Below are positions 2,454 through 55,928 of a DNA stretch of 64,000 nucleotides, one piece after another. The stretch lies in the sequence record GQ981382; one strand, given 5' to 3'. The translations under genes were made by a program, and so were the position numbers. Position 1 is the stretch's first letter, and each line of letters begins with the position of its first letter. Under the pieces are notes generated by a model. That model saw only the letters and a program-made list of their open reading frames with translations. It ran no database searches and was not told the DNA's origin. Origin of the DNA: Shigella phage SP18.

Positions 2454-2712
2454 TCTCCTGTAATATTTTTCTCATACTACGCATGGTAGCTTTATGTTCT
2501 TGGTCATGGTATATCAATGCAAGGAGTGCTTCAATTCGCTCCTCAGGGACCTTCTGGCCAGCCTTAATGCTCATGGCTGTTGTTCTTACAGCTAATAAGT
2601 AACTTCGCTTCCTGTCGCTATCTGGGAGCTCCTGTACCTTCCTCAGGCCTGCTTCCATAATACACCGTGCGACATTTTGCAGATTAACTAAACTTCCGTC
2701 AGACATAATCAT
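2428..2712 (-). CDS. hypothetical protein
   Basis: 94 aa ORF, same strand, compact spacing; start uncertain (MIMSDG). Confidence 0.45.
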   Translation of the reverse strand: MIMSDGSLVNLQNVARCIMEAGLRKVQELPDSDRKRSYLLAVRTTAMSIKAGQKVPEERIEALLALIYHDQEHKATMRSMRKILQEIGNDELQS

Positions 2713-2762
2713 ATTTTCACCTCAAAGACATCTTAACACAATTTTTGTGGCTTGTACATAAT

Positions 2763-2791
2763 AAAAAGGTCTCCCGAAGGAGACCAAATTT
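2763..2791 (-). terminator. CUUCGG-tetraloop hairpin terminator (GGTCTCC-ttcg-GGAGACC plus U-tract)
   Basis: perfect 7-bp inverted repeat with cgaa/ttcg loop flanked by A/T runs. Confidence 0.55.
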
Positions 2792-6370: not shown

Positions 6371-6862
6371 TTAGGCAAAATGAATATCAGCATACTCAAC
6401 GATAAAGCTCTCAGGAACAACCTTAAAGGTTCCAAGGAATACGATATTATACAGTTTGACACCTTCTTCAACCCACTGGTCGGTGATGTAACCAGACATA
6501 CTAGTGGTTTCATAAGTCGGACCGTACTTGCAATTGTATTCAAACGGTTTAGGTGAAACGAAAAAGACACCTTTACCTAATTTCCATTTAAAATCAACCC
6601 CAACATGAGACTGGTCAATGGTTTCAACTTCTTCAACTACTGGAGCGATGTATCCAGTAAATTCAGTTGATTCCAGGAATTTAGGATGTACATAAGCCAA
6701 TTGAGTTTCAGCATGACCATGTTTAGGAATAATACGCACTTTAACTTCTTTAATTCCACCTACTAAATTAGTGCGAAGACTCACAACCTCAACAAAACGA
6801 CCAGCAGCTTTAGAACGAGATTCTTTAGAAACACGTACAATATCACCTTCTTCAACTTTCAT
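6371..6862 (-). CDS. motB: MotB-like modifier of transcription
   Basis: 163 aa, position and size match T4 MotB (162 aa); called from memory of the T4 sequence. Confidence 0.65.
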   Translation of the reverse strand: MKVEEGDIVRVSKESRSKAAGRFVEVVSLRTNLVGGIKEVKVRIIPKHGHAETQLAYVHPKFLESTEFTGYIAPVVEEVETIDQSHVGVDFKWKLGKGVFFVSPKPFEYNCKYGPTYETTSMSGYITDQWVEEGVKLYNIVFLGTFKVVPESFIVEYADIHFA

Positions 6863-6905
6863 AATTTTCTCTCTTGATTAATAAGTTTATTCTCCAGTGG
6901 GGTCA

Positions 6906-6934
6906 TTATACTCTGACCCCAAGAGTTTGTACAC
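6906..6934 (-). promoter_or_regulatory. early promoter (GTGTAC -35, 18-bp spacer, TATAAT -10) driving motB
   Basis: minus-strand GTGTACaaactcttggggtcagagTATAATgacccc; matches the recurrent promoter cassette. Confidence 0.6.
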
Positions 6935-6941
6935 TTTAAAT

Positions 6942-7697
6942 TTAATTAAAAATTTCAACAACCATGGAACGTGGGACAACAGTAAATTCACCAGCATGGA
7001 CAACGTTCAGGAGTTCAACACCATCTTCAATCCACTGGTCTGTTACCCAACCACAAATGGAACTGTTAAATGGGCGTTTGATTTGAACTGGTTTACATAG
7101 CAAGTCAATAGGGTCACCCAGCTCGCTAACTTCTTTTAGCAGTACAGATTCACGCGGATAAAGGATAGCTTCAAGATTGTCACCTGATTCATTGACTGCA
7201 GTAAATTCAAAGATGCTTTGGTGATTGTGGTACTTAACTGTTTTAACGGTAAATGGAGCAAATCCAAAAATACCTTTCAGTACCCGCCAACCAGCATGCA
7301 TTGCGACAGTCTTTCCAAATTGACTATCATCTTCAATAAGCTGATAGGTTTTACCAACTTTGATAGGAGTTTCTTCAACTTCTTTGAAGAGTTCAATCTC
7401 AGCTTCATAAACCATAATTTTTTCTACTTCATTTGTATCAAGGCGACGTGCATGTAGAATATATGCTTTATCAAACCAGTTACTTTTTACAAAAGTTTCA
7501 ACAATAAATTCACCTTCGCCTAAAGCATCAGTCAGAGTATTATACCCAGAAACCATAGCTGCATTTTGAATAATAGGTTCAATCAGTTGATAAGTTTTGT
7601 TAATTTCAATAGTCATATTTTGTTTCTCAAGTTTTAATGGTTTAATTGGGCGAACATACATACTTACAACATCAAAGTCAATAAATTCTGGTTTCAT
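6942..7697 (-). CDS. MotB paralog with N-terminal extension
   Basis: 251 aa; C-terminal ~60 aa (GWVTDQWIEDGVELLNVVHAGEFTVVPRSMVVE) aligns with MotB C-terminus (GYITDQWVEEGVKLYNIVFLGTFKVVPESFIVE). Confidence 0.6.
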   Translation of the reverse strand: MKPEFIDFDVVSMYVRPIKPLKLEKQNMTIEINKTYQLIEPIIQNAAMVSGYNTLTDALGEGEFIVETFVKSNWFDKAYILHARRLDTNEVEKIMVYEAEIELFKEVEETPIKVGKTYQLIEDDSQFGKTVAMHAGWRVLKGIFGFAPFTVKTVKYHNHQSIFEFTAVNESGDNLEAILYPRESVLLKEVSELGDPIDLLCKPVQIKRPFNSSICGWVTDQWIEDGVELLNVVHAGEFTVVPRSMVVEIFN

Positions 7698-7954
7698 TAT
7701 GCAACCTTATTGAACATCGCCAGTTGATTAGGTTGTACAACCATAATTTCACGACGACCTTTTGTATTTGACACGTTCAGGTAGATGCCTTTGTTCATGT
7801 CTGTTTCTTTATCATATACCGCAATTTTATTGACAGTAAAGATTTTACCACGAATATTTGCAAATGCACATTCAAACGCTTTAGTCAGACCTGCTTCAGC
7901 AGCTTGAAGAGCGGACATTTCATATTGTTGGCCAATTTCAAAAGAAGTAATCAT
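7697..7954 (-). CDS. hypothetical protein
   Basis: track ORF extends through promoter leader (translating STTDEDNKM); true ATG after conserved leader gives 85 aa. Confidence 0.5.
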   Translation of the reverse strand: MITSFEIGQQYEMSALQAAEAGLTKAFECAFANIRGKIFTVNKIAVYDKETDMNKGIYLNVSNTKGRREIMVVQPNQLAMFNKVA

Positions 7955-7985
7955 TTTGTTGTCCTCATCAGTAGTTGATGAGATG

Positions 7986-8015
7986 ATTATGTCTCTTTCC
8001 ATTGACCTTGTACAC
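7986..8015 (-). promoter_or_regulatory. early promoter (GTGTAC -35, CATAAT -10) with conserved leader ATCAACTACTGATGAGG
   Basis: recurrent cassette; leader ends in GAGGA SD before ATG at 7954. Confidence 0.6.
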
Positions 8016-8021
8016 TACTTT

Positions 8022-8705
8022 TTATCGTTTTTTCGGTAAAGATAACGGGTCTGCATCTTCTTCGGAAGGAACTTCATCCAAACCAAGGGCATAGCGCTGG
8101 GCATACTTCAACATCAAAATATCTTTCGCGCAGTCATGTACCGAATCGTGCGCCACGAATCCATCTAAAGTCCCCTTTGGTAATGGAGTTTCACACATCT
8201 TACGGACGAGTGACAAGGCTTCGATGGCTGTCCTGATATCTCGCTGGTTCCAGAATACAACCGGCTCCAGGCCATAGGTATTCAATTCACGCTCAGGAAT
8301 CCCCTCATTGCGCTGTAGGTCGCGGATAAGGTCAACAAACAACGGGAAGTCAAAAGACATTCCCCGACACCACATAAGGCTTTCGTATTTGTTAATTCCA
8401 TTACCATTCAGATAGTCAATCGCCTGTTGGATACCGGTCAGAGTATCAACATCATGCGCAGAAGGGACCAGGTTAACACGTGCTTCGGTTGATTGTTTTT
8501 TCCACCAACCCATAGTTGTTGTGTCGAACAGCCGCTTACCTTTTTGATATTCAAGGCTGAACTTAATGCGTTTGCCGCGATTAACCAGAGTTTCGAATGA
8601 TTCTACAATAGCAGGGTCAGATTCAAATGTAATCAGGGCCAGGTCAATAACGGCTCCCTTCGAGCCGTTTCCCAGAGTTTCAAAGTCAATAATAGCATCA
8701 ATCAT
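8022..8705 (-). CDS. dexA: exonuclease A (DnaQ-like 3'-5' exonuclease)
   Basis: 227 aa, same length as T4 DexA; DFETLG exo motif. Confidence 0.8.
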   Translation of the reverse strand: MIDAIIDFETLGNGSKGAVIDLALITFESDPAIVESFETLVNRGKRIKFSLEYQKGKRLFDTTTMGWWKKQSTEARVNLVPSAHDVDTLTGIQQAIDYLNGNGINKYESLMWCRGMSFDFPLFVDLIRDLQRNEGIPERELNTYGLEPVVFWNQRDIRTAIEALSLVRKMCETPLPKGTLDGFVAHDSVHDCAKDILMLKYAQRYALGLDEVPSEEDADPLSLPKKR

Positions 8706-10555: not shown

Positions 10556-11302
10556 TTAACCTCTAATCAGTTTAAAAATTGACGCCTTCAAAGGCAGACC
10601 ACGTTTCAGTTTTAATTTACCAATAAAACCAATCTTCTCAAAACGCTCAAGACCTTGAATGATTTTATCATAGCAATCAAAAAGCGTTTCAGCATCAGTT
10701 AATTTCTTGGTAACTTTCCAGTCATTACCTTTGAGCAGGACGTTCAATTTAGTAAGCTCATGACCTTCCGCAACACGGGAACCATCAATGCGAGCCTTCA
10801 GAGCAACCATTTTTAATTGGTTTTCTTTGGACTGCTCTGATTTACTCATTTGAGCATAATGCTTAACGCGATTATCACGTTTATGCTGGATGTTCTTGAT
10901 ATGAGTATACGACTTTTTAATCTGTTCCCATTTCTCTGCAGTCAGATTTAACTTATCAATCTTCTTGGCGGATGGGCGCGCAATTTTTACAGCAACATCA
11001 TCGCGACGTTGTTTAAGCTCATCCAGGGACCAATCAGAACGCATGGTATTGTATTTCTTTTTAACAGGAATAACATTACCTTTGATATAACCAATATCAT
11101 TGTTAAAACGCTCTAATGATAACTTCTCACCTTCAATAGAGTTATTAAATGTCTCACCAGAATAAGCACAAACTTTTTGGTCAAGAATGTTAACCAGATA
11201 ATTGAAATCCAGGTTAAAGTCCTTACCGCGACGTTTAGCGGAAGCTTGAGTGTGTTCCAGACGACGTTTAACTTTCAGCGTTTTGGTTTTTGATAAAGTC
11301 AT
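10556..11302 (-). CDS. srd: Srd-like protein (T4 srd position)
   Basis: 248 aa basic protein between dda and modA, as T4 srd; assignment positional. Confidence 0.5.
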   Translation of the reverse strand: MTLSKTKTLKVKRRLEHTQASAKRRGKDFNLDFNYLVNILDQKVCAYSGETFNNSIEGEKLSLERFNNDIGYIKGNVIPVKKKYNTMRSDWSLDELKQRRDDVAVKIARPSAKKIDKLNLTAEKWEQIKKSYTHIKNIQHKRDNRVKHYAQMSKSEQSKENQLKMVALKARIDGSRVAEGHELTKLNVLLKGNDWKVTKKLTDAETLFDCYDKIIQGLERFEKIGFIGKLKLKRGLPLKASIFKLIRG

Positions 11303-11349
11303 GATATTTTTCTCATCTTACGGACGATTTGATAACTCAGTATGGATTC

Positions 11350-11378
11350 ATTATACACCATCCATTGGGTGTGTACAC
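11350..11378 (-). promoter_or_regulatory. early promoter (GTGTAC -35, TATAAT -10) upstream of srd
   Basis: GTGTACacacccaatggatggtgTATAATgaatccatactgag. Confidence 0.55.
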
Positions 11379-11458
11379 TACTTTTTGCCTTTAACGCTTT
11401 TATTTTTACTGTGTATAATGGTTCTAAGGTCTTTGGCCTTTTGTCAACCCAGAATACT

Positions 11459-12073
11459 TCAGTAAGAAAGAACGGAAAGATTCCATAATTTATAGTCTTC
11501 CCATCTATAAATGCTCTCAATAGAGTCCACGCGTAGCGTAGTTCCCGCAGGGAACATCATCTCATCTTCATCATTTACTAATTGCAAGTTTGAAGAACGA
11601 GTTATTTCAGGATATAGTCCATTGAACTCTTCAGGAGGTGCCGCACAAATCATTTTAAAAATCGCTTCCTGATAATCAAATGCGAATGGTGCATCATTAA
11701 TACAGAAAATATTTTTGGTTCCATAGAAGCTAAAGGAAGCAAAGTTACGCGCAACACTGAAATCTTTGGAGAAACTCATTACACGGTCAAACTCAATCGT
11801 AGCACCAACACATCCTACGGTTTCAAGATATGCCAAAGTTTTCTTAGAAATCCCGCGATATAACTTACCAGGCACAGCAGAAGTCAAATTCTTACGAATA
11901 ATTTTGTTCAAAGTTTCCTGGATAGTGTCTGGCTTATTTTCCATGCACTGCCAGAGTGTACTCTGTTCCAACTCAGAGTAAATTTCATCAATTTCAATCT
12001 GGGTATTTTCACGAAAATATTCACATTTAACTGCATTGATGTACTCTGCTAATTGGTGACTTGCGTACAGCAT
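11459..12073 (-). CDS. modA: ADP-ribosyltransferase ModA-like
   Basis: about 204 aa after trimming promoter leader; ART motifs (YRG, SFS, downstream acidic residues); A versus B label is positional. Confidence 0.65.
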   Translation of the reverse strand: MLYASHQLAEYINAVKCEYFRENTQIEIDEIYSELEQSTLWQCMENKPDTIQETLNKIIRKNLTSAVPGKLYRGISKKTLAYLETVGCVGATIEFDRVMSFSKDFSVARNFASFSFYGTKNIFCINDAPFAFDYQEAIFKMICAAPPEEFNGLYPEITRSSNLQLVNDEDEMMFPAGTTLRVDSIESIYRWEDYKLWNLSVLSY

Positions 12074-12104
12074 TTTATTATCCTCATCAGTAGTTGATAG
12101 GAAC

Positions 12105-12134
12105 ATATTAACGTGTCTTATTGCTCTTGTACAC
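12105..12134 (-). promoter_or_regulatory. early promoter with conserved leader, driving modA-like gene
   Basis: GTGTAC -35, TTAATAT -10, leader ATCAACTACTGATGAGG. Confidence 0.5.
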
Positions 12135-12678
12135 AGTCAAGAACATAATAATCACCAACAAATCCAGCATCAACTATCACGAATTTCTGGTCAACTGGAA
12201 CAAACCATTCAAGCTCAGAATCAATCATGTCCATGTATTCTTCACGTCTTAACGTTGCTGCCTGTTCGGAACCAGAAGCTGTATTGAAGAATTCCAGTGG
12301 AACATCAAGCGCGAGCTTACGCATTGCATCATGGTAACAAAAAGCTTTGGTCTGATTCAATCTGACGATAGTCCTAGTCACATATTCCATTGCAGCAAAA
12401 TCCCTGGCAATACCATAGTCTTCTGTAAAGGAGGTTATCCTTCCAAATTCAAAAGGTTTCATTGATTCTTTTGCTTCATCTAACAAATCAATCTCTTGCT
12501 GGGTAACCCCACGATACAAGACTGTATCAGGTACAGATAACCTTGACTTGATGATTGAGTTAACGTTTGAATGCAAGGTCTTATCGACTTTTGATGTGCG
12601 GCATTCAAATAATGAAGCTATCTCCATTTCACTAAATTTTAACTGGTTGGGTTCGGTATCAGATTTGATGATGTTCAT
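12118..12678 (-). CDS. modB: ADP-ribosyltransferase ModB-like
   Basis: 186 aa; ART motifs (LYRGV, SFT); paralog of adjacent modA-like gene. Confidence 0.65.
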   Translation of the reverse strand: MNIIKSDTEPNQLKFSEMEIASLFECRTSKVDKTLHSNVNSIIKSRLSVPDTVLYRGVTQQEIDLLDEAKESMKPFEFGRITSFTEDYGIARDFAAMEYVTRTIVRLNQTKAFCYHDAMRKLALDVPLEFFNTASGSEQAATLRREEYMDMIDSELEWFVPVDQKFVIVDAGFVGDYYVLDCVQEQ

Positions 12679-18446: not shown

Positions 18447-18740
18447 TTATTCACCTGTAACCCATTGAACAATCTTGCTGTTGTCAAATGAAGCATCGCA
18501 ATACAGAACATAGTTATACTGCATAACATCACCAGAAGTCAATTGGTCAGATACTTCTTTAACCATATCAGGACGGTCACGTTTAGTAATATTCATGATG
18601 TCAGCATAAATCTGATGTTCAACATCAGCCTGGTCAGCAGTCATGGACCACTCGCAAAGGTCTTTATCAAGTCCAGCAGTAACTGGAGCTGTGCCACATG
18701 ATGCTACGGTAAGAATTGCTGCGATTAATAACTTTTTCAT
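18447..18740 (-). CDS. sp: Spackle periplasmic protein (superinfection exclusion; inhibitor of gp5 lysozyme)
   Basis: 97 aa with signal peptide; DKDLCEWSMTADQ and MQYNYVLYCD motifs as in T4 Sp. Confidence 0.85.
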   Translation of the reverse strand: MKKLLIAAILTVASCGTAPVTAGLDKDLCEWSMTADQADVEHQIYADIMNITKRDRPDMVKEVSDQLTSGDVMQYNYVLYCDASFDNSKIVQWVTGE

Positions 18741-18768
18741 TTCAATCTCCTCAGTAGTTGATAGGGAT

Positions 18769-18798
18769 AATATACTGCATTATCCCTATGTTGTACAC
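18769..18798 (-). promoter_or_regulatory. early promoter (GTGTAC -35, TATATT -10) upstream of sp
   Basis: recurrent cassette with leader ATCAACTACTGAGG. Confidence 0.5.
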
Positions 18799-19002
18799 TT
18801 ATTTTTCGTTAGAACGATAATCATATTCAAAAACTTTATTGTCATTAACAAAGGCTTTAACCAGCGCATTATTCACTTCTGCATACTGCACTGTAACCCA
18901 TTCAATCATATTTTTGTCACTGACATCCAGCGCGGTTTCTTTGGTAAACATATTACCATTTTCAAACCAACCAATAAACACTACGTTCTCTAATTTATAC
19001 AT
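18799..19002 (-). CDS. dmd: Dmd antitoxin-like protein (inhibitor of host RnlA/LsoA toxins)
   Basis: 67 aa; VVFIGWFENGNMFTKE...VQYAEVNNALVKAF closely resembles T4 Dmd. Confidence 0.75.
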   Translation of the reverse strand: MYKLENVVFIGWFENGNMFTKETALDVSDKNMIEWVTVQYAEVNNALVKAFVNDNKVFEYDYRSNEK

Positions 19003-19320
19003 TTAGATTTCCTCACAAAACGCCCATGCGGCGTGATAAACTGTTGCGCCTTTAGTGTCATTTAAACAAACCACGTCAACAGGTGCAATCACACGATAAA
19101 GACGGGGTTCTCCTCCATATGAGCGAGCTGCTCTTCCTGCATAGATACGCGCCAAACCAATATCTTCAGTAAAAAACACACGCCCTAAATTTTTCTTACG
19201 CCCAACTTCTGACAAAACGCCAGTTGCATCAGGAGGACAAAGCATATTTTGGATTCCAGCATTAGAGCTTGACCCATGATAATAAACTTTGTATTCTGCC
19301 TTGCAATCAATGGTTTTCAT
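19003..19320 (-). CDS. hypothetical protein
   Basis: 105 aa ORF, stop/start abutting dmd. Confidence 0.5.
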   Translation of the reverse strand: MKTIDCKAEYKVYYHGSSSNAGIQNMLCPPDATGVLSEVGRKKNLGRVFFTEDIGLARIYAGRAARSYGGEPRLYRVIAPVDVVCLNDTKGATVYHAAWAFCEEI

Positions 19321-19364
19321 TTTATTCTCCAGTAGTTGATAGGGTCATTATAACATAAGAAAAA

Positions 19365-19379
19365 GGGGCTGTAAGCCCC
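19365..19379 (-). terminator. hairpin terminator (GGGGC-tgtaa-GCCCC plus U-tract)
   Basis: inverted repeat with flanking A/T runs. Confidence 0.5.
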
Positions 19380-19388
19380 TTTGTTCAC

Positions 19389-19691
19389 TTACGCCAACTC
19401 ATAGTTGTGCATAGTCAGACAACGAATTTTCCCAGTAGTTGGGTGCATAACAGTCACACTAATTGTGTAATCATCACACACGTTAACAAAAGGTTCGGCG
19501 ATAACATATACTGCCCCACCTGCCAACAGGTATTCACGAAGAGAGCTGCGAACAGATGAAGGTTGAACATCGCTTTTGAGCTTTATTAATTTACCAGTTT
19601 GAATGCCTGATGCGATAAGAGCAGCACAGTTTTCATCACGGCGAGCGAATTGTCCAAAATAGTAACGATTCATGTCGGTTTGATTAAACAT
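19389..19691 (-). CDS. hypothetical protein
   Basis: 100 aa ORF. Confidence 0.5.
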   Translation of the reverse strand: MFNQTDMNRYYFGQFARRDENCAALIASGIQTGKLIKLKSDVQPSSVRSSLREYLLAGGAVYVIAEPFVNVCDDYTISVTVMHPTTGKIRCLTMHNYELA

Positions 19692-19740
19692 ATGGTTTTC
19701 CTTTTAACAGTTGGTTTATTGTGTAACTCAGTATGGAATC

Positions 19741-19770
19741 ATTATGTCCTAAGACAAGGGGCTTGTACAC
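19741..19770 (-). promoter_or_regulatory. early promoter (GTGTAC -35, CATAAT -10) with ATACTGAGTTAC leader
   Basis: second cassette subtype, also seen at 11.35, 47.5, 48.1 and 61.9 kb. Confidence 0.55.
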
Positions 19771-20018
19771 TATTTTAATTCATTAATTAAATGAAAATCT
19801 TGTGCATTGAAAGTAATGAAAAAATAATCATTCCCTTCAACTGAAGCATGACAGGCAACACTACACCAGCGCCTTGCTCTGTTCAAGGAGCAATCCAAAA
19901 TTTTAAAAGGCTTCAGACCAACAATGGCAGCTGTTCTTTTATTATGCTCACAAATATCAGCATACTTTTGGAGAGCTTCTTCAGATTTGAACTGGTAATG
20001 CACATTAACTAATAACAT
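19770..20018 (-). CDS. hypothetical Cys-rich protein
   Basis: 82 aa single-gene unit bounded by promoter-terminator cassettes on both sides. Confidence 0.5.
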   Translation of the reverse strand: MLLVNVHYQFKSEEALQKYADICEHNKRTAAIVGLKPFKILDCSLNRARRWCSVACHASVEGNDYFFITFNAQDFHLINELK

Positions 20019-20049
20019 TTTATTATCCTCATCAGTAGTTGATGGGATA

Positions 20050-20079
20050 ATAGTACACCCTTTTTATGGTGATGTAAAC
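20050..20079 (-). promoter_or_regulatory. early promoter (GTTTAC -35, TACTAT -10); about 55 bp near-identical to the cassette at 51.8 kb
   Basis: GGTTTACatcaccataaaaagggtgTACTATtatcccatcaactactgatgagg. Confidence 0.55.
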
Positions 20080-20092
20080 CTCTAAAATGAAA

Positions 20093-20106
20093 AAGACCCG
20101 AAGGTC
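20093..20106 (-). terminator. CUUCGG hairpin terminator downstream of gene 41
   Basis: AGACC-cgaa-GGTCT with flanking A/T runs. Confidence 0.55.
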
Positions 20107-20107
20107 T

Positions 20108-21547
20108 TTAGAATTTCATTTGAGCAGCAAGGTCGTCCAGGTCGCTCCTGTTGACCCTGGTTTGTCTATTCATTTCAGCCTGGCGATTCATCTCACCGGT
20201 GGCTTCTTTAACCGTAGGGCCTTGTTTAGGAGCTGAATCATCATCAACCTCGTACCAGCGCTGATTGCCTTTCTTAACACCCATCTTGAATTTATTATAG
20301 TAGTTCTTATCGCCATAACGAGACTTAAGCTGTTTGATTAACTGTAGACCCATTTGAGCGAATTCTTCGGTCTCAACAACACCCAACATAAAGTCAGCCG
20401 TGTGAGCAATACCAAAGGATTCTGCGATGTCAGCCATATCAATCTCAGCTGCAACGTTCGCACCCCTGGTTGTCTGCGCTGCAGTCCACAGGACCACATT
20501 TTTCTCAACAGCCAGACCACGAAGTTCTTCTGCAACCATCTTAATCAGGCCGTAACTGTTTTCGGTAAACGTTTTCAGTCTTGAGCTTGCACAGATTGCC
20601 AGGTAGTCAACAATAATCACATCCGGCACAAATCCTTGCTTCAGTTTGTATTCATTCAGCAATGCACGGAAGGTATCCGCATGAGCACCGCCAGTTGGAT
20701 ATTGTTTTATCTTCAGAGTCCCAAGAGTCCCGGAAGCACGCCATTTTTCCATCTTAGCTTTATATTCCGCCCATGATATATGACCTTCATCAATATCATC
20801 CAGAGATACATCCAGCAAGTTGGCATCAATACGTTTGGCACATACTTCTTCAGCCATTTCCATGCTTATATAAAGCACATTATGACCAGTCTGAAGATAG
20901 TCAGCCGCTAACGAACAAAGTCCAAGGGATTTGCCGACGTTCGTCCCGGCCAGTAAAACGTTCTCTGTACCGTACTCAACCCCACCCTTTGTGATTTTAT
21001 TCAGGATGTTAATACGGAACGGAACCTTCTTCGATTTGTTCAGATAAGTCTGGAATCGAGCTTCGTAATCGTTTAACCAGTCATGGCCCAAAGCGGAGTC
21101 AAAACAGATAGACAATGCGTCGCGCATGATGTCGGGGATAGCACCAATATCCGGGATTCGTTTATCACGTTTATCTTTCGGAAGTTCGGCATTACTCTGG
21201 ATTTCGATAATCCTGGATGTGGCATTGAACATCGCAGACTTCTGCACATACTTCTCGGTTTCTTTAACCAACCATTCCTGGTCTTCTGGAGTATCGGCCA
21301 GGACTCCTAAGAGTTTCTTTGTGCCTTCATATTCGACTTCAGAAAGGTCAGAACTGTCGAGCGCGATATCAAGTGCAGTCTTAGTTGGTACCGCTTGATA
21401 TTCTTTTACGTGTTCGTTAATCGTATTAAAAAGAGTCTTCGCGGGACCCTTTTCAAAATATGTGTTATTCAGATACGGCCAGACTTTAACAAAATATTCC
21501 TTGTTAAAGAGTAGCTGGGATAAAATAGTTTCTACCACTTCCACCAC
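20108..21547 (-). CDS. 41: replicative DNA helicase gp41 (DnaB-like)
   Basis: 479 aa; strong identity to T4 gp41 throughout (Walker A GTNVGKS, LYISMEMAEEVCAKRIDAN). Confidence 0.95.
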   Translation of the reverse strand: MVEVVETILSQLLFNKEYFVKVWPYLNNTYFEKGPAKTLFNTINEHVKEYQAVPTKTALDIALDSSDLSEVEYEGTKKLLGVLADTPEDQEWLVKETEKYVQKSAMFNATSRIIEIQSNAELPKDKRDKRIPDIGAIPDIMRDALSICFDSALGHDWLNDYEARFQTYLNKSKKVPFRINILNKITKGGVEYGTENVLLAGTNVGKSLGLCSLAADYLQTGHNVLYISMEMAEEVCAKRIDANLLDVSLDDIDEGHISWAEYKAKMEKWRASGTLGTLKIKQYPTGGAHADTFRALLNEYKLKQGFVPDVIIVDYLAICASSRLKTFTENSYGLIKMVAEELRGLAVEKNVVLWTAAQTTRGANVAAEIDMADIAESFGIAHTADFMLGVVETEEFAQMGLQLIKQLKSRYGDKNYYNKFKMGVKKGNQRWYEVDDDSAPKQGPTVKEATGEMNRQAEMNRQTRVNRSDLDDLAAQMKF

Positions 21548-21876: not shown

Positions 21877-23044
21877 GGTCTTCCATCATATCTAAATCGT
21901 TTTCGATATCTGCCGCAGACGGTTTTGTCTTACCTTCAGGAGCAGTGTATTTTTCAACCTTGGAGGCAATAAGCGCATCAACTTCGGCATCAACAACAGC
22001 ATTGCTATCGATTGCACCCAGTTGGTAATGGCGTTTGATTGCATCACGGAAAGGTTCGTGCTTGAACAGCGGGCCCCAGAATTCGGTGCAGTTAGTATCT
22101 TTTGCGCGCCATGATTTTTCTTCGCGGACCATTTCACCGGTCTCAACATCAAGATATTCACGGTTATACCAACCAACTTTTGGTTTCACCACAAATCCGA
22201 TTTCCATTGCCATATCAAGCAGGCCAGAATACGGGTCAATACCCCCATCGAATTTTACATCAATGAAGAATTTACTTTTCTCTTTGACCATACGAGATTT
22301 TTCGGCGTTCAGAACAAATTGGAAGCCTTCAAGTTCTTTACCAGTTTCTTTAATCTGGCGTTTGCCGATAATGAATACGGTGTCTGCGGAATACATAACA
22401 CCTGTACCACCGGTCATAACGGTTTTGCTATACATCTCAATCGTCTCGATTGTATGGTTAACCGCGACACAAGGAATATCCTTGATGCTAAAATACGGGG
22501 TAACAATACGGAACAGAGATTTCAGGGATTTAGCACGAGTCATATCACCAACAACTTTTTCGTTCATCGCATCTTCTGTTTCTTTTTTCGACGCCATGTT
22601 ACCGATTGAGTCAATAAAGATAATGACTTTTTCACCACGCTCAATTGCTTCAAGCTGGTTAACCATATCAACTTTCAATTGTTCAACCGACTGGATTGGT
22701 GTATGGATAACACGCTCCGGGTCAACTTTCATTGCACGAAGATATGCTTCTGTGATACCAAATTCTGAATCATAGAACAAACAGATTGCATCGGGGTATT
22801 TGTTCATATATGCAGAGACCATCGTTAAACCCATATTGGATTTAAAGTGTTTTGACGGACCAGCAAAAATAGTCAAACCTGACTGCATACCACCATCTAG
22901 TGCACCGCTGATTGCAATGTTCAGCATCGGGATTTTTGTACGAACTACATCTTTATCATTAAAGAACTTGGACTTGGTAAGAGTCGCAGTCATTTTGGAT
23001 GTAGAAGCTTTAATCAAACGGGATTTCAAATCTGCAATAGACAT
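21866..23044 (-). CDS. uvsX: UvsX recombinase (RecA/Rad51 family)
   Basis: 392 aa; near-colinear with T4 UvsX (Walker A GPSKHFKSN). Confidence 0.95.
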   Translation of the reverse strand: MSIADLKSRLIKASTSKMTATLTKSKFFNDKDVVRTKIPMLNIAISGALDGGMQSGLTIFAGPSKHFKSNMGLTMVSAYMNKYPDAICLFYDSEFGITEAYLRAMKVDPERVIHTPIQSVEQLKVDMVNQLEAIERGEKVIIFIDSIGNMASKKETEDAMNEKVVGDMTRAKSLKSLFRIVTPYFSIKDIPCVAVNHTIETIEMYSKTVMTGGTGVMYSADTVFIIGKRQIKETGKELEGFQFVLNAEKSRMVKEKSKFFIDVKFDGGIDPYSGLLDMAMEIGFVVKPKVGWYNREYLDVETGEMVREEKSWRAKDTNCTEFWGPLFKHEPFRDAIKRHYQLGAIDSNAVVDAEVDALIASKVEKYTAPEGKTKPSAADIENDLDMMEDLDE

Positions 23045-23129
23045 TCATTTTTTCCATAGGCACCATTATATTTTTCTCACAGGTTTAAGATAGGATAATT
23101 ATATCACTGTATTTTTAGAGCAATTAATG

Positions 23130-23633
23130 TTAGTTAATACCTTGGCGTGCTTTCTCTTTAGCTATACATTTATTAATATAGCTCAGACGGTTTTGAGCAG
23201 AACGCTGATACATATCGCGGTACTCATTAGCTTTTGGAGAACCCGTCTCCGCCGCCTGATAAGCTTCCGCGCGCATGATGTTTATCTGCATATTGATGTA
23301 TGACATGCAGACCTGCGAAATCTGGTTAACAGTATCCAGGTCATTTTGTCGCTTGGTTTCTGCTTCCAGCTTGGCAATGATTTCGTCATGCTTCGCAGCT
23401 TGCTCGCGTTTGTACTCAATTTCTTGTTGAGCATATTTCGCGCAGTTGTTTCCACATTGATTGTTGTCGCGTTTGTAGATAAGTCCAGTACCACCTTTGA
23501 AATCAAAGGAACCATTATGCACCCGACGGTCGGCAGCAATTCGCGCTTTACCAATCTCGTTGGCATTAACAACATCACCCTGGTAAGCACAACCAGATAG
23601 CAGCATAACAGCTGCGATAGCTAACTTTTTCAT
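23130..23633 (-). CDS. lipoprotein of unknown function, coiled-coil rich
   Basis: signal peptide plus lipobox MKKLAIAAVMLLSGC; track ORF extended upstream. Confidence 0.55.
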   Translation of the reverse strand: MKKLAIAAVMLLSGCAYQGDVVNANEIGKARIAADRRVHNGSFDFKGGTGLIYKRDNNQCGNNCAKYAQQEIEYKREQAAKHDEIIAKLEAETKRQNDLDTVNQISQVCMSYINMQINIMRAEAYQAAETGSPKANEYRDMYQRSAQNRLSYINKCIAKEKARQGIN

Positions 23634-23783: not shown

Positions 23784-24026
23784 TCATTTTGCTTCCTTGA
23801 TGATAATTACTTGTGCGTTTGATTTACGTTCAGCAACGAGTGCCCAGATAAATGCAATAAACCATCCGACCATTGTCCAACCTAACAGGAGGTTAACAAA
23901 GAAGATTCCGCAATTACTTTTGGTTCCACGCAGTAGCGCGATAATCCACGGCAGAAAATATGCCAGTGCAGCCAGGAAGAAAGAACCTGCACCAAGAACA
24001 ACAGTACCCGCAATTAATGTTTCCAT
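23784..24026 (-). CDS. small two-TM membrane protein (possible Imm-like, immediately upstream of gene 43)
   Basis: 80 aa highly hydrophobic; T4 imm occupies this position; assignment tentative. Confidence 0.5.
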   Translation of the reverse strand: METLIAGTVVLGAGSFFLAALAYFLPWIIALLRGTKSNCGIFFVNLLLGWTMVGWFIAFIWALVAERKSNAQVIIIKEAK

Positions 24027-24095
24027 TTTAATATCCTTAAGTTATTCATCAGTTGATGGGGTAATCATACGGCAATCCATTGCCGTTGTAAACAC

Positions 24096-26810
24096 TTAAA
24101 AGTCAAACATATCAAAAAGAGTTGCTTTCTTTTCGTAATCAACCTTAGCTGCTTCAGAGAAACCTGTTAATGGCTTAACAAAAGTCTTCTGGAACAGTGT
24201 GTTGTAGTCCATCCACTGCAAGACTTGGTCACGAATTTCAATCGGGAGTTCAATCCCTGACGGCCATGCAATCACAGTTTCACCAAACGGGTTGCCGACT
24301 TTAAGAGGAAGTACATACACCTTTTCCCCTTCCATGATTTGCGGAACAGTCTTCAGACCTTTAGTTGCACGCATATATGCAAGCACACCTTTGATATGAG
24401 CCGGACACTTAAATCCAGGGAAACCGCCTTCATTATATTTCTGGATGTTGTTAACCGATGATACACCTGCGATGGTCATGTAGTTAAGCTCATTAAATTC
24501 CTTATTGAATTCCTTGAAGTATGTCTGCAGAGATTCTTCACCTTCTTGCAGCATACGGCGGATACATTCTTTCAGAGCTTTCTGACATGCCTTTGGAGTA
24601 CTCGACTTTTGAGTTTCCAGACCCATGATTTTCAGTTTCGGAACCGCATATCGTGTGCCTTCCATATCGTACACGTTCAGCGCATAACGCTTCTTCGCCG
24701 TCCAGAATCCACCCACACCTTTAGAACCCAGCGGAGGACATGCAATCGCCTCACGGTCCATAAACATAAGGTGCTGTTTGTTGTTCATGTATTCAGCCAG
24801 CTCACGGAAAGCTTTATCGATTGCCGGTTCCAGACGGTCTTTCGCAAACTTGTCCATGAAGTCAACCAGGTGGTTTGTATCACGGAATTTAGATTCGCCA
24901 CCAACCTTTTTAATCAGGTTATCGCACTGGATATAAATGGAGTCAGTATCGCCATAGAACACATAAGTTTCACCGCTTGTCCCACAAACACTATCGAAGT
25001 ATTCGTTAACTTTACGCTCAATCCACTGCAATGCAAGTTGTCCGAAAGATGTAATCGCGGTTGCATTTCGCAGGTCAAAGTAACGGAACCAGATATTACC
25101 CAGAGCGCCATAACAACTGTTGATAAGCAGTTTACGGTTAATCTGTGCGGTCATGCCTGCAACTTCTTCCATCTGCGCTTTGTACAACATACCATTCAGA
25201 ACTGTTTGATTCAGACCATGTAAGGTTGTTTTCATATTGTCATCAAAGTCATGACGATAATCAACTTCAGGCTCGGTTGTACCAGTTCCTGGATTACGCA
25301 GAGCTTCCTTAATCAGTTCACCATTACGTTGAGCCGCAAGCATATAGCCTTTGTGCTCTTTACGCTGATTAAACACCTTGGTGACTTCTGTCGGAATAAT
25401 ACCCGCAACATCTTTAAAATACATCATACCATTTGGAGCACAACTAAATGTATCAGATGGACGGTCAGCAGTTCCTGCGATGTATTCGTACATCGGCGCT
25501 GGTGCAAATGACCCGGCAATCGTTTCTGGACTGATGTTAATCTGTCGGATGATGCTCGGATACAGAGATGTTAAGTCACAGCTCATAACGTATTTGTATG
25601 CGTTCGGAATCGGTTCCTTAACAAATGCACCAGGGAACGATTGGCGAACATGTGATTTGGTTTCCGGAATGACTTTGTTTTGAGTCTTCAGGCTGTTAAA
25701 GATAATCGCATCCCAAGTTTTGATTGGGCTGAATACAGACTGAATCTGCATTTTTGCATAATAACCCATTGACTGGCTCAGGTTAATAAACTGCCGCTTA
25801 CGGTCAATCTGCACAACACGATAAACGTCGATGATGTTATAAGAAATATACCGCTGGTGATTTGATTCACGCAGTTTAGAAATCGGGCCATCATACGGGA
25901 GTTTACCAACACCCAGTTCAGATTCCGCAACATAATCCAACGAATAAGACGGTTGGTTTGTGAAGCTGAACTTTTTATACAGGTCCAGATAATCCAGAAC
26001 AGAGATACCCAGAATCTGAATGATTTCTTGTTCTTCACCAAAGCCGTTGTTAATGACTTTAACTTTTGTACGACGATGTGGGCTCAGACGTTTTGCCGTA
26101 GCTTCACCAAATACATTTTTAAGGCGGTTGTAGATATATGGAATATCAAACTTCTCGATGTTCCAACCAGTTAACATAACCGGAGTTTTCTCGTTCCAGA
26201 ATACCAAATACTGCTGGAGCATTTCTTCTTCTGAATCGAAAGCCATATAAACAATTTTTTCCAGGATTTCTTCCGGGACTTCATCACCACCATCTTCCTG
26301 CAGCTTAGCAGCAATATCAATAGACCATTGCTCCACAGTGGCGTATGGTGAGCCCAAAAGGTCAAAGACATAGAATTTATCGTCTACCGAATCATAGTGC
26401 GTCAGGGCATCAATAGGGTGACGTGCTTCAGACGGTTCAGGAAACCCATCAGGAGATGTCACCTCGATATCGAAGTTAGCAACACGGATTTTACTTGAAT
26501 CATATTTGATTTCGTGTGGGTAACGGTCGGACAAGTATGCGAGTTTAAAGTCGTCCATACCCATAGCTTCGAGACCCATGTCATTCATTCGCTTCATCCA
26601 CTGGGATGCATCACGCATGGAATCGAATTCTTTTTTCACACAACCTTTATTATAGATGTCTGTATACTTTGCAGCTTGGTCTTCGCGGGCGTGCATAAAC
26701 AAGCATGGAGCATAAGGGATTTCACGAACACGTTCATGACCATTCTTGTCAATATATCGTTCGAGCAGATTGTCACCGATTTGTTCGATAGTTAAATAAA
26801 ATTCTTGCAT
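24096..26810 (-). CDS. 43: DNA polymerase gp43 (family B, 3'-5' exonuclease plus polymerase)
   Basis: 904 aa; exo motifs FDIEV and YNIIDV, polymerase motifs DLTSLYPSII, KILINSCYG, YGDTDS; RB69-like by memory. Confidence 0.95.
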   Translation of the reverse strand: MQEFYLTIEQIGDNLLERYIDKNGHERVREIPYAPCLFMHAREDQAAKYTDIYNKGCVKKEFDSMRDASQWMKRMNDMGLEAMGMDDFKLAYLSDRYPHEIKYDSSKIRVANFDIEVTSPDGFPEPSEARHPIDALTHYDSVDDKFYVFDLLGSPYATVEQWSIDIAAKLQEDGGDEVPEEILEKIVYMAFDSEEEMLQQYLVFWNEKTPVMLTGWNIEKFDIPYIYNRLKNVFGEATAKRLSPHRRTKVKVINNGFGEEQEIIQILGISVLDYLDLYKKFSFTNQPSYSLDYVAESELGVGKLPYDGPISKLRESNHQRYISYNIIDVYRVVQIDRKRQFINLSQSMGYYAKMQIQSVFSPIKTWDAIIFNSLKTQNKVIPETKSHVRQSFPGAFVKEPIPNAYKYVMSCDLTSLYPSIIRQINISPETIAGSFAPAPMYEYIAGTADRPSDTFSCAPNGMMYFKDVAGIIPTEVTKVFNQRKEHKGYMLAAQRNGELIKEALRNPGTGTTEPEVDYRHDFDDNMKTTLHGLNQTVLNGMLYKAQMEEVAGMTAQINRKLLINSCYGALGNIWFRYFDLRNATAITSFGQLALQWIERKVNEYFDSVCGTSGETYVFYGDTDSIYIQCDNLIKKVGGESKFRDTNHLVDFMDKFAKDRLEPAIDKAFRELAEYMNNKQHLMFMDREAIACPPLGSKGVGGFWTAKKRYALNVYDMEGTRYAVPKLKIMGLETQKSSTPKACQKALKECIRRMLQEGEESLQTYFKEFNKEFNELNYMTIAGVSSVNNIQKYNEGGFPGFKCPAHIKGVLAYMRATKGLKTVPQIMEGEKVYVLPLKVGNPFGETVIAWPSGIELPIEIRDQVLQWMDYNTLFQKTFVKPLTGFSEAAKVDYEKKATLFDMFDF

Positions 26811-36047: not shown

Positions 36048-36370
36048 TTCGCACCCTTAATAATTTTCAGGTCAACAAAACCTTTCTTGCGCTGGGAATT
36101 CATACGCTTGATAGCTTTATCAGAAACTTCTTTGTTTTCACGCGGAAGCGGCAGACCAAACGCTACTACATCAAATTCATTCAGGATATACTGGACAAGG
36201 CTTTCACGAATACGCGCTTTACCCATTGTCTGACCTTCTGCAATAATCAACTTCTGTACATCGCCTTCCCACTGGTCCAGAATCTCAGGGGTAACGAAAC
36301 CAGATTTCATCAGAGTGTTAACTTTAGCAAATGCGAAATTAGTGATGATGTTAGTGATAGATGCAGTCAT
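36044..36370 (-). CDS. hypothetical protein
   Basis: 108 aa ORF. Confidence 0.5.
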   Translation of the reverse strand: MTASITNIITNFAFAKVNTLMKSGFVTPEILDQWEGDVQKLIIAEGQTMGKARIRESLVQYILNEFDVVAFGLPLPRENKEVSDKAIKRMNSQRKKGFVDLKIIKGAK

Positions 36371-36442
36371 GATATATTCCTCAGTCTCATTAAATTAAAA
36401 TTTTATTATCCTAGGGTCATTATACCATGACCCCGTTGGTTT

Positions 36443-36688
36443 TTACTGCGCTTTAGCGCCTTTCCAGCCTTCGTACATCATTGCAACGGATAAAAGCAAT
36501 GCGCCTTCGCATGCAGCATACTTATTATTCCAAAACCAGTTCAGAAAAACTTCATCCTCAATGCCAGAGTGTTTCATGTTCTGGAAAAATTTGGCACGTT
36601 CTTCTGCAATACGTTGTGACAATTTAGATTGTGGATTCATTTTAAATTTTCCAGTTACCGTTTTCATCAATAAATTCAATCCAGTCAT
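36443..36688 (-). CDS. hypothetical protein
   Basis: 81 aa ORF. Confidence 0.45.
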   Translation of the reverse strand: MTGLNLLMKTVTGKFKMNPQSKLSQRIAEERAKFFQNMKHSGIEDEVFLNWFWNNKYAACEGALLLSVAMMYEGWKGAKAQ

Positions 36689-37331: not shown

Positions 37332-37510
37332 AATTTAGGTCCTTTTGCAACTGTATTGAACAAGCTACGGTCACACACCATCAACGGAGCATCAGGCCAT
37401 TTCAAAGGACGATACCATACATCTTGGTCCGTCACTTTGGTTACTTGCACAGGATAGCCATTTACTGAATAATACTGGTCGGCTTTAATTTCTTTATCTT
37501 CAATAACCAT
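37328..37510 (-). CDS. small hypothetical protein
   Basis: about 60 aa after trimming promoter leader (STTDEENKM). Confidence 0.45.
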   Translation of the reverse strand: MVIEDKEIKADQYYSVNGYPVQVTKVTDQDVWYRPLKWPDAPLMVCDRSLFNTVAKGPKL

Positions 37511-37541
37511 TTTGTTTTCCTCATCAGTAGTTGATGGGATA

Positions 37542-37571
37542 ATGATACACCGTTCAAAGGGGCTTGTACAC
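37542..37571 (-). promoter_or_regulatory. early promoter (GTGTAC -35, TATCAT -10) with ATCAACTACTGATGAGG leader
   Basis: recurrent cassette immediately downstream of nrdH. Confidence 0.5.
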
Positions 37572-37577
37572 CCCTTT

Positions 37578-37895
37578 TTAATCTTCAATTAAGTCCTGGT
37601 CATACCCCAGGGATATCAGTTTTGTTTTAAAGGCAGGAATATTTGTCATTTTTTCATCATTGACAAAAATCACTGGGTAACGAATGTTAAGGGTAGGATA
37701 TCCAGCACGCTTAGCCAAAGACACGATTAATGGCCTGTCATAAGCGATTTCAGAGCCTTGTTTGTTAAGGACTGAATAGAATGTATAAGGAAGGTTTAAG
37801 GAGCCCAGAAGGCTCCTGACGTGCATACAACCTGGGCATCGACCGACTTCTTCGGGGATACCATAGATTTCAATCTTAGTCGAGTTTTGGTCCAC
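37578..37895 (-). CDS. nrdH: glutaredoxin-like protein NrdH
   Basis: 105 aa; CPGC redox motif; adjacent to nrdG/nrdD as in T4. Confidence 0.7.
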   Translation of the reverse strand: MDQNSTKIEIYGIPEEVGRCPGCMHVRSLLGSLNLPYTFYSVLNKQGSEIAYDRPLIVSLAKRAGYPTLNIRYPVIFVNDEKMTNIPAFKTKLISLGYDQDLIED

Positions 37896-42005: not shown

Positions 42006-42122
42006 ATCCAAACCCCATATCGATTAAATCATTGTTTGAAGGTTCATTATAATCTATTTCGGAATCGTTGTAAACAGGTTCCTCTGGCTCGACAGTTTCC
42101 CATCGAGCGGTATACCATGGTT

Positions 42123-44855: not shown

Positions 44856-44913
44856 AGTGTTCTCCTCATAAAGTAGGAATTCATTATACTCCCTCCATCC
44901 TTGGAAGTAAACA

Positions 44914-45291
44914 TTATTTTAATGCTAAAATCGCCGCCTGCAATTTATTGCGTTGTGTTTCCATGTTCTTGATGCGATTCAGAACATCCTGGATACCCTT
45001 TTTCTCATCTTCAATCAGACCATTTAAGCGGTTGACTGATTCCTGGATAGCATCAGCATGATGTTTCTCAATAGGCTTCATTGATGGGTTAAAGATTCCA
45101 AGAGAGCTAGCCGGTTTGACTTTCCATTGGTACATATTTTTAACGTCCAGCGGTGAAATAGGCTGTGTTTTATATTGACCTGCAAATGCTGGACCATATG
45201 ATGCGGATGATGCGATAGGGGTACGTTCTGTCATTTCTGGTTCCTTTTTCTCCTGATAAGGAGCGTAAGACAAAAGATATTCTTTAGTCAA
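44914..45291 (-). CDS. hypothetical coiled-coil protein
   Basis: 125 aa ORF. Confidence 0.5.
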   Translation of the reverse strand: MTKEYLLSYAPYQEKKEPEMTERTPIASSASYGPAFAGQYKTQPISPLDVKNMYQWKVKPASSLGIFNPSMKPIEKHHADAIQESVNRLNGLIEDEKKGIQDVLNRIKNMETQRNKLQAAILALK

Positions 45292-47447: not shown

Positions 47448-47483
47448 TTTATTCTCCAGTATTTGGTAACTCAGTATGGGAAC

Positions 47484-47513: not shown

Positions 47514-47515
47514 AT

Positions 47516-55901: not shown

Positions 55902-55928
55902 GATTATCTCCTTTTGTTTGATGGGATA

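Follow-up and report, generated by a model that had tools for sequence, protein, structure and literature searches.

The locus downstream of gp41

The window analysed here, the whole 64,000-nucleotide stretch of the Shigella phage SP18 record GQ981382, is by its sequence that of a T4-type coliphage of the genus Gaprivervirus (Tevenvirinae). Over 4 kb around positions 19741-20106 it is 97-99% identical to the Gaprivervirus coliphages DCP80, vB_EcoM_RZ and VR20, and 89% identical to VR7. The window genes lie on the minus strand, and all repeats are therefore to be read as reverse complements; the gene map was assembled minus strand first, with three genes set by hand, and downstream genes carry the T4-based names of the VR7 record. 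The gp41 helicase gene (20108-21547) is followed by three small ORFs of 82, 100 and 105 amino acids, then by dmd and sp.

The interval 19741-20106 spans the type-B -10 element upstream of ORF100, the cassette gene ORF82, the type-A module of ORF82 and part of the hairpin at 20092-20109 (Table 1). A generic promoter scan also detects copies of the module near this interval. Seven Gaprivervirus genomes (RZ, VR7, DK-13, TH54, TH40, TH44 and TH41) formed the comparison set, and the order of elements differs among them. In VR7 the terminator comes after gp41, with the type-B promoter and the ORF100 orthologue directly behind it, while in DK-13 and TH40 gp41 runs directly into module 19384. The VR7 and DK-13 junctions around ORF82 and ORF100 have their breakpoints in the A-rich and -35 part of the modules, and at base level the junctions around 19741-20106 fit the model of promoter-early stem-loops (PeSLs) considered below.

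Table 1. Modules and associated features of the window; all +1 positions are inferred from spacing to the -10, and "drives" denotes a predicted relationship.
Feature	Position	Strand	Gene context	Details
Module 2758	2712..2785	-		upstream C(UUCG)G terminator 2785-2768
Module 6937	6862..6955	-	upstream of motB	8-bp inverted repeat around -10; 5' boundary of motB allele swap at ATG
Module 8022, type A	7954..8036	-	upstream of VR7ORF013c/dexA block	leader hairpin CUCAUCA-ACUAC-UGAUGAG
Module 11385, type B	11302..11400	-	upstream of srd	
Module 12138, type A	12073..12155	-	upstream of modA	100% conserved; TH54 modA ORF is a 25-80% identical allele
Module 18804, type A	18740..18819	-	upstream of sp (spackle)	11-bp inverted repeat overlapping -10; insertion hot spot, 3 alleles
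Module 19384	19320..19397	-	drives ORF105 and dmd	-10 19352-19347; TIR GGAGAAUAAAAUG; hairpin AAAGGGGC-UUA-CAGCCCCUUU at 19382-19362 with -35 in loop, plus U-run
Module 19777, type B	19691..19791	-	drives ORF100 (19389-19691)	-35 TGTACAA 19769-19763; -10 CATAAT 19746-19741; +1 19734; leader AUACUGAGUUACAC...
ORF82, cassette gene	19770..20018	-		PHROG 2980, label 'goF mRNA metabolism modulator'
Module 20086, type A	20018..20091	-	ORF82	-35 GTTTACA 20078-20072; -10 TACTAT 20055-20050; +1 20043; leader AUCAACUACUGAUGAGGAUAAUAAA; ATG at 20018
Intrinsic-terminator hairpin	20092..20109	-	directly after gp41 stop	AAAGACC-UUCG-GGUCUUU and U-run; 36 nt upstream of the module 20086 -10
Module 23107, weak	23044..23148	-	upstream of uvsX	insertion hot spot, 3 alleles
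Module 24099	24026..24114	-	upstream of imm	spacer stem-loop CGGCAA-UGGA-UUGCCG
Module 36454	36370..36469	-	upstream of 55.2	7-bp inverted repeat around -10
Module 37579, type A	37510..37592	-	upstream of 55.6	-35 in hairpin loop; 5' boundary of 55.6 allele swap
Copy 42076, doubtful	42015..42096	-	intragenic	no ORF start after copy
Module 44913	44855..44933	-	upstream of nrdC.4	
Module 47520, type B	47447..47534	-	upstream of nrdC.8	TIR GGAGAAUAAAAUG
Module 48098, type B	48019..48111	-	upstream of conserved ORF64	
Module 48324	48266..48351	-	drives ORF58 (48090-48266)	terminator 48351-48332
Module 51842, type A	51777..51875	-	upstream of conserved mobD.5	12-bp C(UUCG)G terminator 51875-51848; paralogue of module 20086
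Module 55965	55901..55979	-	upstream of regB	Shine-Dalgarno GGAG
Module 58071	58030..58106	-	upstream of ip7-like internal protein gene	11-bp inverted repeat around -10
Module 58742	58678..58759	-	upstream of ip10-like internal protein gene	
Module 59205, type A	59143..59220	-	upstream of denV	285-bp insertion at -35 in DK-13 and TH44
Module 61974, type B	61903..61988	-	drives ORF74 (61679-61903)	crossovers at -35 and at next gene's Shine-Dalgarno
Module 63403	63321..63420	-	drives ORF66	TIR GGAGAAUAAAAAUG

A family of promoter-leader modules

A sequence-only reading of this DNA had proposed that promoter-leader modules recur at least 15 times in two leader subtypes. Mapping bears this out: 25 modules of 55-100 bp were located, each anchored on its -10 hexamer, in a single register and all on the coding (minus) strand, with both subtypes present. 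The near-identical pairs pointed out in that reading are also real, 20028-20094 and 51784-51850 being 93% identical and 47460-47513 and 48037-48090 98% identical. An nhmmer profile built from 17 seed copies scored 18 minus-strand sites at E <= 1.5e-4, of which 17 are the seeds and match by construction, and no plus-strand match better than E = 0.27. The count of 25 is made up of the profile sites together with weaker, well-placed ones. Several overlapping families of 25-77 nt direct repeats were recovered independently by a repeat search. A GTTTAC-type regular expression was tried as a module finder; with a -35 that in this phage is mostly GTGTACA, it passed over the majority of copies, and the profile was used in its place. 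The identity of the modules as a known structured RNA was ruled out, the whole window giving no Rfam match at the gathering score.

The modules have a common order, consisting of an A-rich region, a -35 element, a spacer of 16-17 nt, a -10 element, a C-rich discriminator, the inferred +1, a leader and a Shine-Dalgarno sequence. The -35 is GTGTACA in 14 of the 25 copies and GTTTACA in most others, and the -10 is close to TATAAT and often followed by GA, with an A at the expected transcription start. A-rich runs stand immediately 5' of the -35 in most copies, and the gp41 stop, for example, falls just upstream of module 20086. All copies except one (24 of 25) are directly 5' of an ORF whose start, with Shine-Dalgarno and ATG, follows 11-47 nt past the inferred +1. 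The genes so placed include motB, srd, modA, sp, imm, 55.2, 55.6, nrdC.4, nrdC.8, mobD.5, regB and denV, two internal-protein genes and several small ORFs of unknown function.

These features agree with published descriptions of T4-type early promoters. The T4 promoters combine excellent -35, TGn and -10 elements with an UP element and further consensus regions, an 'über' UP/-35/TGn/-10 arrangement (Hinton 2010, PMC2988021). The consensus published for T4-like phages has GTTTAC at -36 to -31, A-rich sequence at -40 to -44, GT-rich sequence 5' of -12, T-12, A-11 and T-7, and C-rich sequence at -3 to -1 (Nolan et al. 2006, PMC1524935). The modules share with this consensus the A-rich -40s, the GTTTAC-type -35, the GT-rich extended -10 and the C-rich -3 to -1, and with the T4 promoters an A-rich UP-like region, a TATAAT-like -10 and a location 5' of T4 early gene orthologues and novel ORFs. 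They differ in that the 14 copies mentioned above have G as the third base of the -35 hexamer (GTGTAC), and in their conserved initial transcribed sequences, AUCAACUACUGA and AUACUGAGUUACC, which exceed in length the published consensus descriptions in their available text. From sequence, position and orthology, we infer a regulatory role for the modules.

Leaders and ribosome-binding regions

The leaders are of type A (ATCAAC..., AUCAACUAC...) in about 13 copies, of type B (ATACTGAGTTA..., AUACUGAGUUACC) in 5, and of neither type in 7. For the leader motif ATCAACTAC the count is 8 where 0.55 would be expected, and for the leader motif CATACTGAGTTA it is 5 where 0.02 would be expected, in both cases only on the minus strand. 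The start region cCTATCAAC is common, as a looser pattern, to early promoters downstream of gp41 in other Tevenvirinae genera, so the type-A leader core is not peculiar to this phage. The module profile gave essentially no matches at E < 1e-3 in 42 gp41 loci of other genera, and an exact 14-mer scan of IMG/VR with the type-B leader returned mostly single chance matches, with multiple copies only in VR20 and VR26. In these comparisons, both the complete leader motifs and the GTGTACA -35 prove to be Gaprivervirus-specific.

Many modules have as their 3' part a recurrent ribosome-binding region, GGAGAAUAAAAUG; another recurrent one, UGAUGAGGAnAAnAAAAUG, is without GGAG. GGAG lies within the Shine-Dalgarno region of 13 of the 24 modules with a downstream ORF. 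The motif GGAGRAYARAA has 5 exact matches against 0.4 expected, all of them inside module ribosome-binding regions and all reading GGAGAAUAAAA. Strong RegB/S1 cleavage sites have the consensus GG*AGRAYARAA (Uzan & Miller 2010, PMC3014915), which the five regions match exactly, making them candidate RegB cleavage targets. The likeness to RegB/S1 sites extends to the presence of regB in the window (55443-55901, 98.7% identical to VR7 regB and with GGAG in its own Shine-Dalgarno); cleavage here is predicted.

Stem-loops and terminators

A C(UUCG)G terminator hairpin with a U-run lies immediately upstream of three modules only (2758, 20086 and 51842) and a CCUCGG terminator hairpin upstream of module 48324 only, while in modules 19384 and 37579 the -35 sits in the loop of a G/C hairpin that leads into a U-run. 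A terminator hairpin is adjacent to 4-6 of the 25 modules, and genuine single-gene cassettes, provided with a promoter as well as a terminator, form a minority. The statement in the sequence-only reading that the modules are often paired with CUUCGG hairpins thus holds for three of them and is overstated for the family. Hairpins are found in the spacers of modules 24099 and 19777, and a convincing stem-loop is absent from about 10 of the 25 copies.

In nine of the 25 modules a perfect inverted repeat of 6-11 bp places the -10, and often the +1 as well, in its loop. The arms vary between modules yet remain complementary (GGGTCA/TGACCC, ATGGAT/ATCCAT, TAGGGT/ACCCTA and GATGGGATA/TATCCCATC). Pairing of a module's own arms gives longer stems than pairing with the arms of other modules (permutation p(mean) < 0.0002; p = 0.0024 for the count of stems of 6 bp or more), and the folds of module regions are more stable than those of random windows (mean z -1.55 versus -0.17, p = 2e-4). 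Similar inverted repeats are present in early promoters of other Tevenvirinae genera. With their 5' arm upstream of the start site, these hairpins are confined to read-through RNA or to DNA, and they are without U-runs; a role for them as terminators is putative and unproven.

According to the available text of Arbiol et al. 2010 (PMC2839356), PeSLs fall into five classes by the position of the stem-loop, the commonest having it between the promoter boxes or overlapping the -10. The positions seen here (upstream of, overlapping or between the boxes) are positional classes of that scheme. The repeats bracketing the -10 had been considered as a possibly new feature, an idea that was dropped since stem-loops overlapping the -10 are a common PeSL class in that text. 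It is doubtful, though worth stating, that selection maintains them as a nucleic-acid structure that serves some purpose besides termination, such as a structure cut by a nuclease or a fold of read-through RNA. Were this so, a cruciform or hairpin cut by endonuclease VII and gp46/47 would make cassette shuffling and promoter conversion actively targeted and not a passive by-product; alternatively, a fold confined to read-through RNA would separate the translation of read-through transcripts from that of promoter-proximal ones.

Probable exchange between module copies

The 16-nt spacer is 100% identical between modules 20086 and 51842 and 94% identical between modules 47520 and 48098, compared with a mean of 32% over all 300 module pairs. 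Near-identity of unconstrained sequence in these two pairs indicates that each pair shares descent. Promoter 48098 has as its core, from -35 to +1, a copy of the 47520 promoter, which is located 577 bp from it; next to this core lies the ORF58 cassette, which is specific to the window. At the same place, upstream of the conserved ORF64, each of the seven relatives has a promoter with a different core, with another spacer and -10. Loci 20086 and 51842 are 31.7 kb apart and share spacer variants: AACACC is found at 51842 in the window and TH44 and at 20086 in TH41, and ATCCTC at 51842 in VR7, TH54 and TH40 and at 20086 in TH44. This distribution of variants indicates inter-locus conversion, as read from the aligned spacers.

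Alleles of modA, 55.6 and motB have been replaced downstream of modules that are themselves perfectly conserved: identity is about 100% up to the module leader or ATG and 25-80% from there on. Any gene-wise allele swap would be expected to have its 5' boundary at the ATG.

Insertions and deletions at module junctions

Among the seven relatives, 63 distinct indel events were counted, a set that is phylogenetically non-independent and whose breakpoints, taken from BLAST HSP ends, have a precision of only about 15 nt. At least one end lies within 60 nt of a module -10 in 21 of them, and all ends do so in 14; the other 42 have no end near a module. Against a uniform null, 12 of 51 breakpoints in three genomes are near modules where 2.4 are expected. 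Indels fall nearly always at gene boundaries, and the fair null is one of gene junctions, against which module enrichment is modest: 12 of 24 module junctions are polymorphic versus 40 of 114 others (OR 1.85, p = 0.13). The number of alleles per junction is 1.25 at modules and 0.59 elsewhere (p = 0.026).

Hot spots coincide with modules 18804, 20086, 23107, 48098/48324 and 58071. Others are without modules and include homing-endonuclease insertion sites and a tightly packed ORF block at 41-43 kb; the homing-endonuclease insertions in relatives, at about 4.8, 15.1, 16.0 and 30.4 kb, are at junctions without modules. Base-level junctions are convincing at about eight loci. The ORF74 insertion, for example, lies between the -35 of the resident promoter and the Shine-Dalgarno of the next gene. 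The tandem internal-protein (IP) genes at 57.7-58.7 kb vary in number among relatives, with breakpoints at the conserved gene start (MKTYQEFI...). The earlier suggestion that the modules mediate shuffling is therefore sustained in part: several indel, replacement and allele-swap boundaries do fall inside modules, but two-thirds of the indels lie elsewhere and the enrichment over other gene junctions is modest. Use of the modules as recombination substrates, which rests on the comparative junctions, is partly supported.

Conservation of module-flanked genes

The genes bracketed by modules had been proposed as the likeliest to be horizontally acquired. This agrees with the distribution of ORF82, which three of the seven relatives have and which at >= 95% identity is limited to 11 database records, and with those of ORF100 (four of seven) and ORF74 (none), but not with that of two of the five genes named there, 47825-48019 and 51574-51777, which are present in all seven; the latter, mobD.5, has a T4 homologue according to the VR7 annotation. 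A homologue of ORF82 with 57% identity occurs in the Tequatrovirus RB3, at a different junction (between 61.4 and sp) and with its own promoter module. ORF66 is present in one of the seven relatives.

ORF58, which was not among the genes that the sequence-only reading listed as bracketed, is found in none of the seven. Its complete segment (48060-48400) occurs only in MN01 and VR26 among the T4-type phages of the phage collection. Phages of 45-48 kb, among them Salmonella phage Akira (Akiravirus), have genes with 77-79% nucleotide identity to the coding part, so ORF58 is shared with an unrelated phage genus.

Across the window, 6 of 23 module-driven genes are variable versus 19 of 116 others (OR 1.8, p = 0.20); for genes of up to 120 amino acids the figures are 6 of 16 and 14 of 74 (p = 0.10). 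Most modules precede conserved T4 early genes (motB, srd, modA, sp, imm, 55.2, nrdC.4, nrdC.8, regB and denV). Bracketing by modules alone does not mark a gene as accessory; it does so for some cassettes, and is not supported as a rule.

Relation to known systems and interpretation

PeSLs have been described in RB49 and phi1 (Arbiol et al. 2010, PMC2839356) and in T4/PST and KVP40/nt-1 (Comeau et al. 2014, PMC4122927). In the available text of these papers they consist of an A-rich region with the stop codon of the upstream gene, a sigma-70-type early promoter, a stem-loop whose position varies (upstream, overlapping the -35 or -10, or in the spacer), a Shine-Dalgarno sequence and an ATG; they lie at gene boundaries of hyperplastic regions, accompany indels and replacements between close relatives, and recombine either within the A-rich region or somewhere from the -10 to the ATG. 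The modules of the window are alike in anatomy, location and crossover points, and by sequence they fit the PeSL definition, as given there, in all testable features. They differ from the published examples in their genus, in a -35 that is mostly GTGTACA rather than TTGACA (RB49) or TTTACW (T4/PST), in having two genus-specific leader types, and in carrying a terminator-like hairpin in only about a quarter of the copies. A further difference is that the association with indels was set against a gene-junction null, where it proved modest; evidence of inter-locus gene conversion is added. The modules are known here from sequence; mini-circles and promoter and terminator activity are features of the published system. 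The phenomenon is already published as PeSLs, and the finding is real but largely ordinary, with no new class of system.

The reading that we favour, with a probability of roughly 0.78, is that the modules are units of a sigma-70-dependent, T4-type early promoter, a leader and a translation-initiation region, a minority of them with terminators, that correspond to the published PeSLs and provide homology patches for exchange as a by-product. Their main function would be to capture the host's RNA polymerase right after infection and to have the early genes translated, and ribosome-binding regions of the sequence GGAGAAUAAAA would additionally tag mRNAs for cleavage by the RegB nuclease. Dispersed, near-identical sequences of 50-100 bp could then serve as patches of homology at gene boundaries for the phage recombination system. 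Crossovers in the A-rich and -35 part, the leader or the Shine-Dalgarno would bring in, remove or exchange entire genes along with functional expression signals, and the same recombination would homogenise promoter copies across loci.

If the modules were only promoters, their similarity would reflect selection for promoter and ribosome-binding strength, and their overlap with indels a shared position at gene boundaries in hyperplastic regions, with no causal role in shuffling. Such a view draws on the well-known extended consensus of T4 early promoters (Hinton 2010, PMC2988021), on the conserved early genes that most modules precede, on the 42 of 63 indel events that end away from modules, and on the lack of significance both of junction-level enrichment (p = 0.13) and of the variability of module-driven genes (p = 0.20). 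Selection for strength does not readily explain, however, why in two pairs the functionally unconstrained spacers reach 94-100% identity when the background is 32%, why spacer polymorphisms are common to two loci 31.7 kb apart, or why one promoter core has been overwritten by that of its neighbour, and base-level crossovers inside modules and multi-allelic hot spots at module junctions argue in the same direction. We regard this alternative as unlikely.

The covarying inverted repeats around the -10 in nine modules might instead be what a dedicated site-specific enzyme recognises, a recombinase or homing endonuclease acting on the module or hairpin and moving the cassettes as autonomous mobile elements; the available text of Arbiol et al. 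2010 (PMC2839356) speculates on a stem-loop-binding helper protein. Crossover points that vary among the A-rich region, -35, spacer, leader and Shine-Dalgarno, as in homologous exchange, and homing-endonuclease insertions at junctions without modules make this highly improbable. The same repeats, together with the leaders, could form an operator for a lineage-specific regulatory protein, for instance in early-promoter shut-off, with neither recombination nor an RNA element involved. The Gaprivervirus specificity of the full leader motifs would suit such a protein, as would the fact that the shut-off mechanism of T4 early promoters is unknown (Hinton 2010, PMC2988021; Uzan & Miller 2010, PMC3014915), but arms that differ in sequence and stay complementary point to base pairing, not to a shared protein recognition sequence, and the ATCAAC start region is common to several genera. 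An operator is accordingly considered very unlikely.

The favoured reading, of PeSL-type promoter modules, also touches on older concepts of phage evolution. Like morons (Hendrix 2000) and the 'linker' sequences of modular evolution (Botstein 1980), both as discussed in the available text of Arbiol et al. 2010 (PMC2839356), the cassettes are single genes with their own promoter, and sometimes a terminator, between resident genes, and their conserved boundaries are points of exchange; unlike morons as discussed there, they are co-oriented with their neighbours, and the regulatory sequences themselves give the homology. Shuffling at the T-even IP locus (Repoila et al. 1994, as cited in the available text of Comeau et al. 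2014, PMC4122927) has its counterpart in the variable number of tandem IP genes here, although the exchange point is the conserved N-terminal coding sequence and leader, not the promoter core.

These observations extend the PeSL picture to another T-even genus. To the available text of the PeSL papers they add a gene-junction control, by which the cassettes are hot spots yet account for only about a third of the indels, and sequence traces of gene conversion linking promoter copies that lie tens of kilobases from each other. For the annotation of Gaprivervirus phages, several of which are considered for therapy, the module map provides a list of early transcription units and candidate RegB targets, and it flags ORF58, ORF74, ORF66 and ORF82 as recently acquired small genes.

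Architecture of the promoter modules

The T4-type early promoter modules of the window carry GTGTAC(A) as their −35 element in 14 of 25 copies (for example, 6933-6927, 19769-19763 and 47512-47506), whereas the corresponding element of T4 early promoters is GTTTAC. The core of the window's element is the palindrome TGTACA, and the part of the −35 hexamer that differs has been treated in relation to the Alt-modified RNA polymerase (Nolan 2006, PMC1524935). Around the −10 box of nine modules, covarying inverted repeats of 6-11 bp hold the box, and often +1 as well, in a hairpin loop. These repeats lack U-runs, their 5' arm lies outside the promoter's own transcript, and they match one known class of promoter-early stem-loop (PeSL) cassettes.

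Coordinates of the recurrent region, the replaced alleles and the inverted repeats
Feature	Position	Source
UGAGGAAAAUAUCAUGA translation-initiation region	11286-11315, 36354-36383, 61652-61681	window
Replaced allele, modA	11459-12073	window
Replaced allele, 55.6	37328-37510	window
Replaced allele, motB	6371-6862	window
−10-bracketing inverted repeats	modules 6937, 11385, 18804, 36454, 47520, 48098, 58071, 59205, 61974	window
−10-bracketing inverted repeats, further cases	L040, L041, L045 and L061 (1430-1490)	loci outside the window

Gene replacement, insertion and duplication

Comparison with Gaprivervirus relatives revealed that alleles of modA, 55.6 and motB have been replaced at gene size with their length unchanged. 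In comparisons with some relatives, exactly one ORF drops to 25-80% identity, while the flanks, upstream promoter module included, are still 97-100% identical. UGAGGAAAAUAUCAUGA is the third of the recurrent translation-initiation regions; three genes have it, and it served as the downstream crossover site in the event that inserted the small gene ORF74. Relatives carry different numbers of internal-protein genes, and the breakpoints fall at the gene start, which is conserved; in the window three of these genes lie in tandem at 57731-58690, with a repeat period of about 320-328 bp and a common N-terminal targeting sequence, MKTYQEFI.

A perfect tandem duplication of 219 bp was found at 14594-14812 and 14826-15044 (100% identity, spacing 232); a strong C(UUCG)G terminator (14586-14567) lies close by. 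TH44 differs from the window here (event 14597-15031), and, judging from the HSP offsets, only one copy is likely to be present in RZ, VR7 and DK-13. Another strong C(UUCG)G terminator, at 4865-4882, has no adjoining promoter module; the junction containing it (4816-4882) is polymorphic, with three alleles, and RZ and VR7 carry an inserted endonuclease VII-like gene there.

Relationships of two small module-driven genes

ORF58 (48090-48266, minus strand) belongs to PHROG 12120, of unknown function, and shows 77-79% nucleotide identity both to a gene of Salmonella phage Akira, which adjoins the large terminase gene, and to genes of Akira-like phages of 45-48 kb. ORF58 is a horizontally shared, cross-family gene. 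ORF82 (19770-20018, minus strand) matches PHROG 2980 (“goF mRNA metabolism modulator”; E = 3.6e-20), and since synteny with VR7 places a separate goF orthologue at about 5.5-6 kb in the window, ORF82 may be a short goF paralogue.
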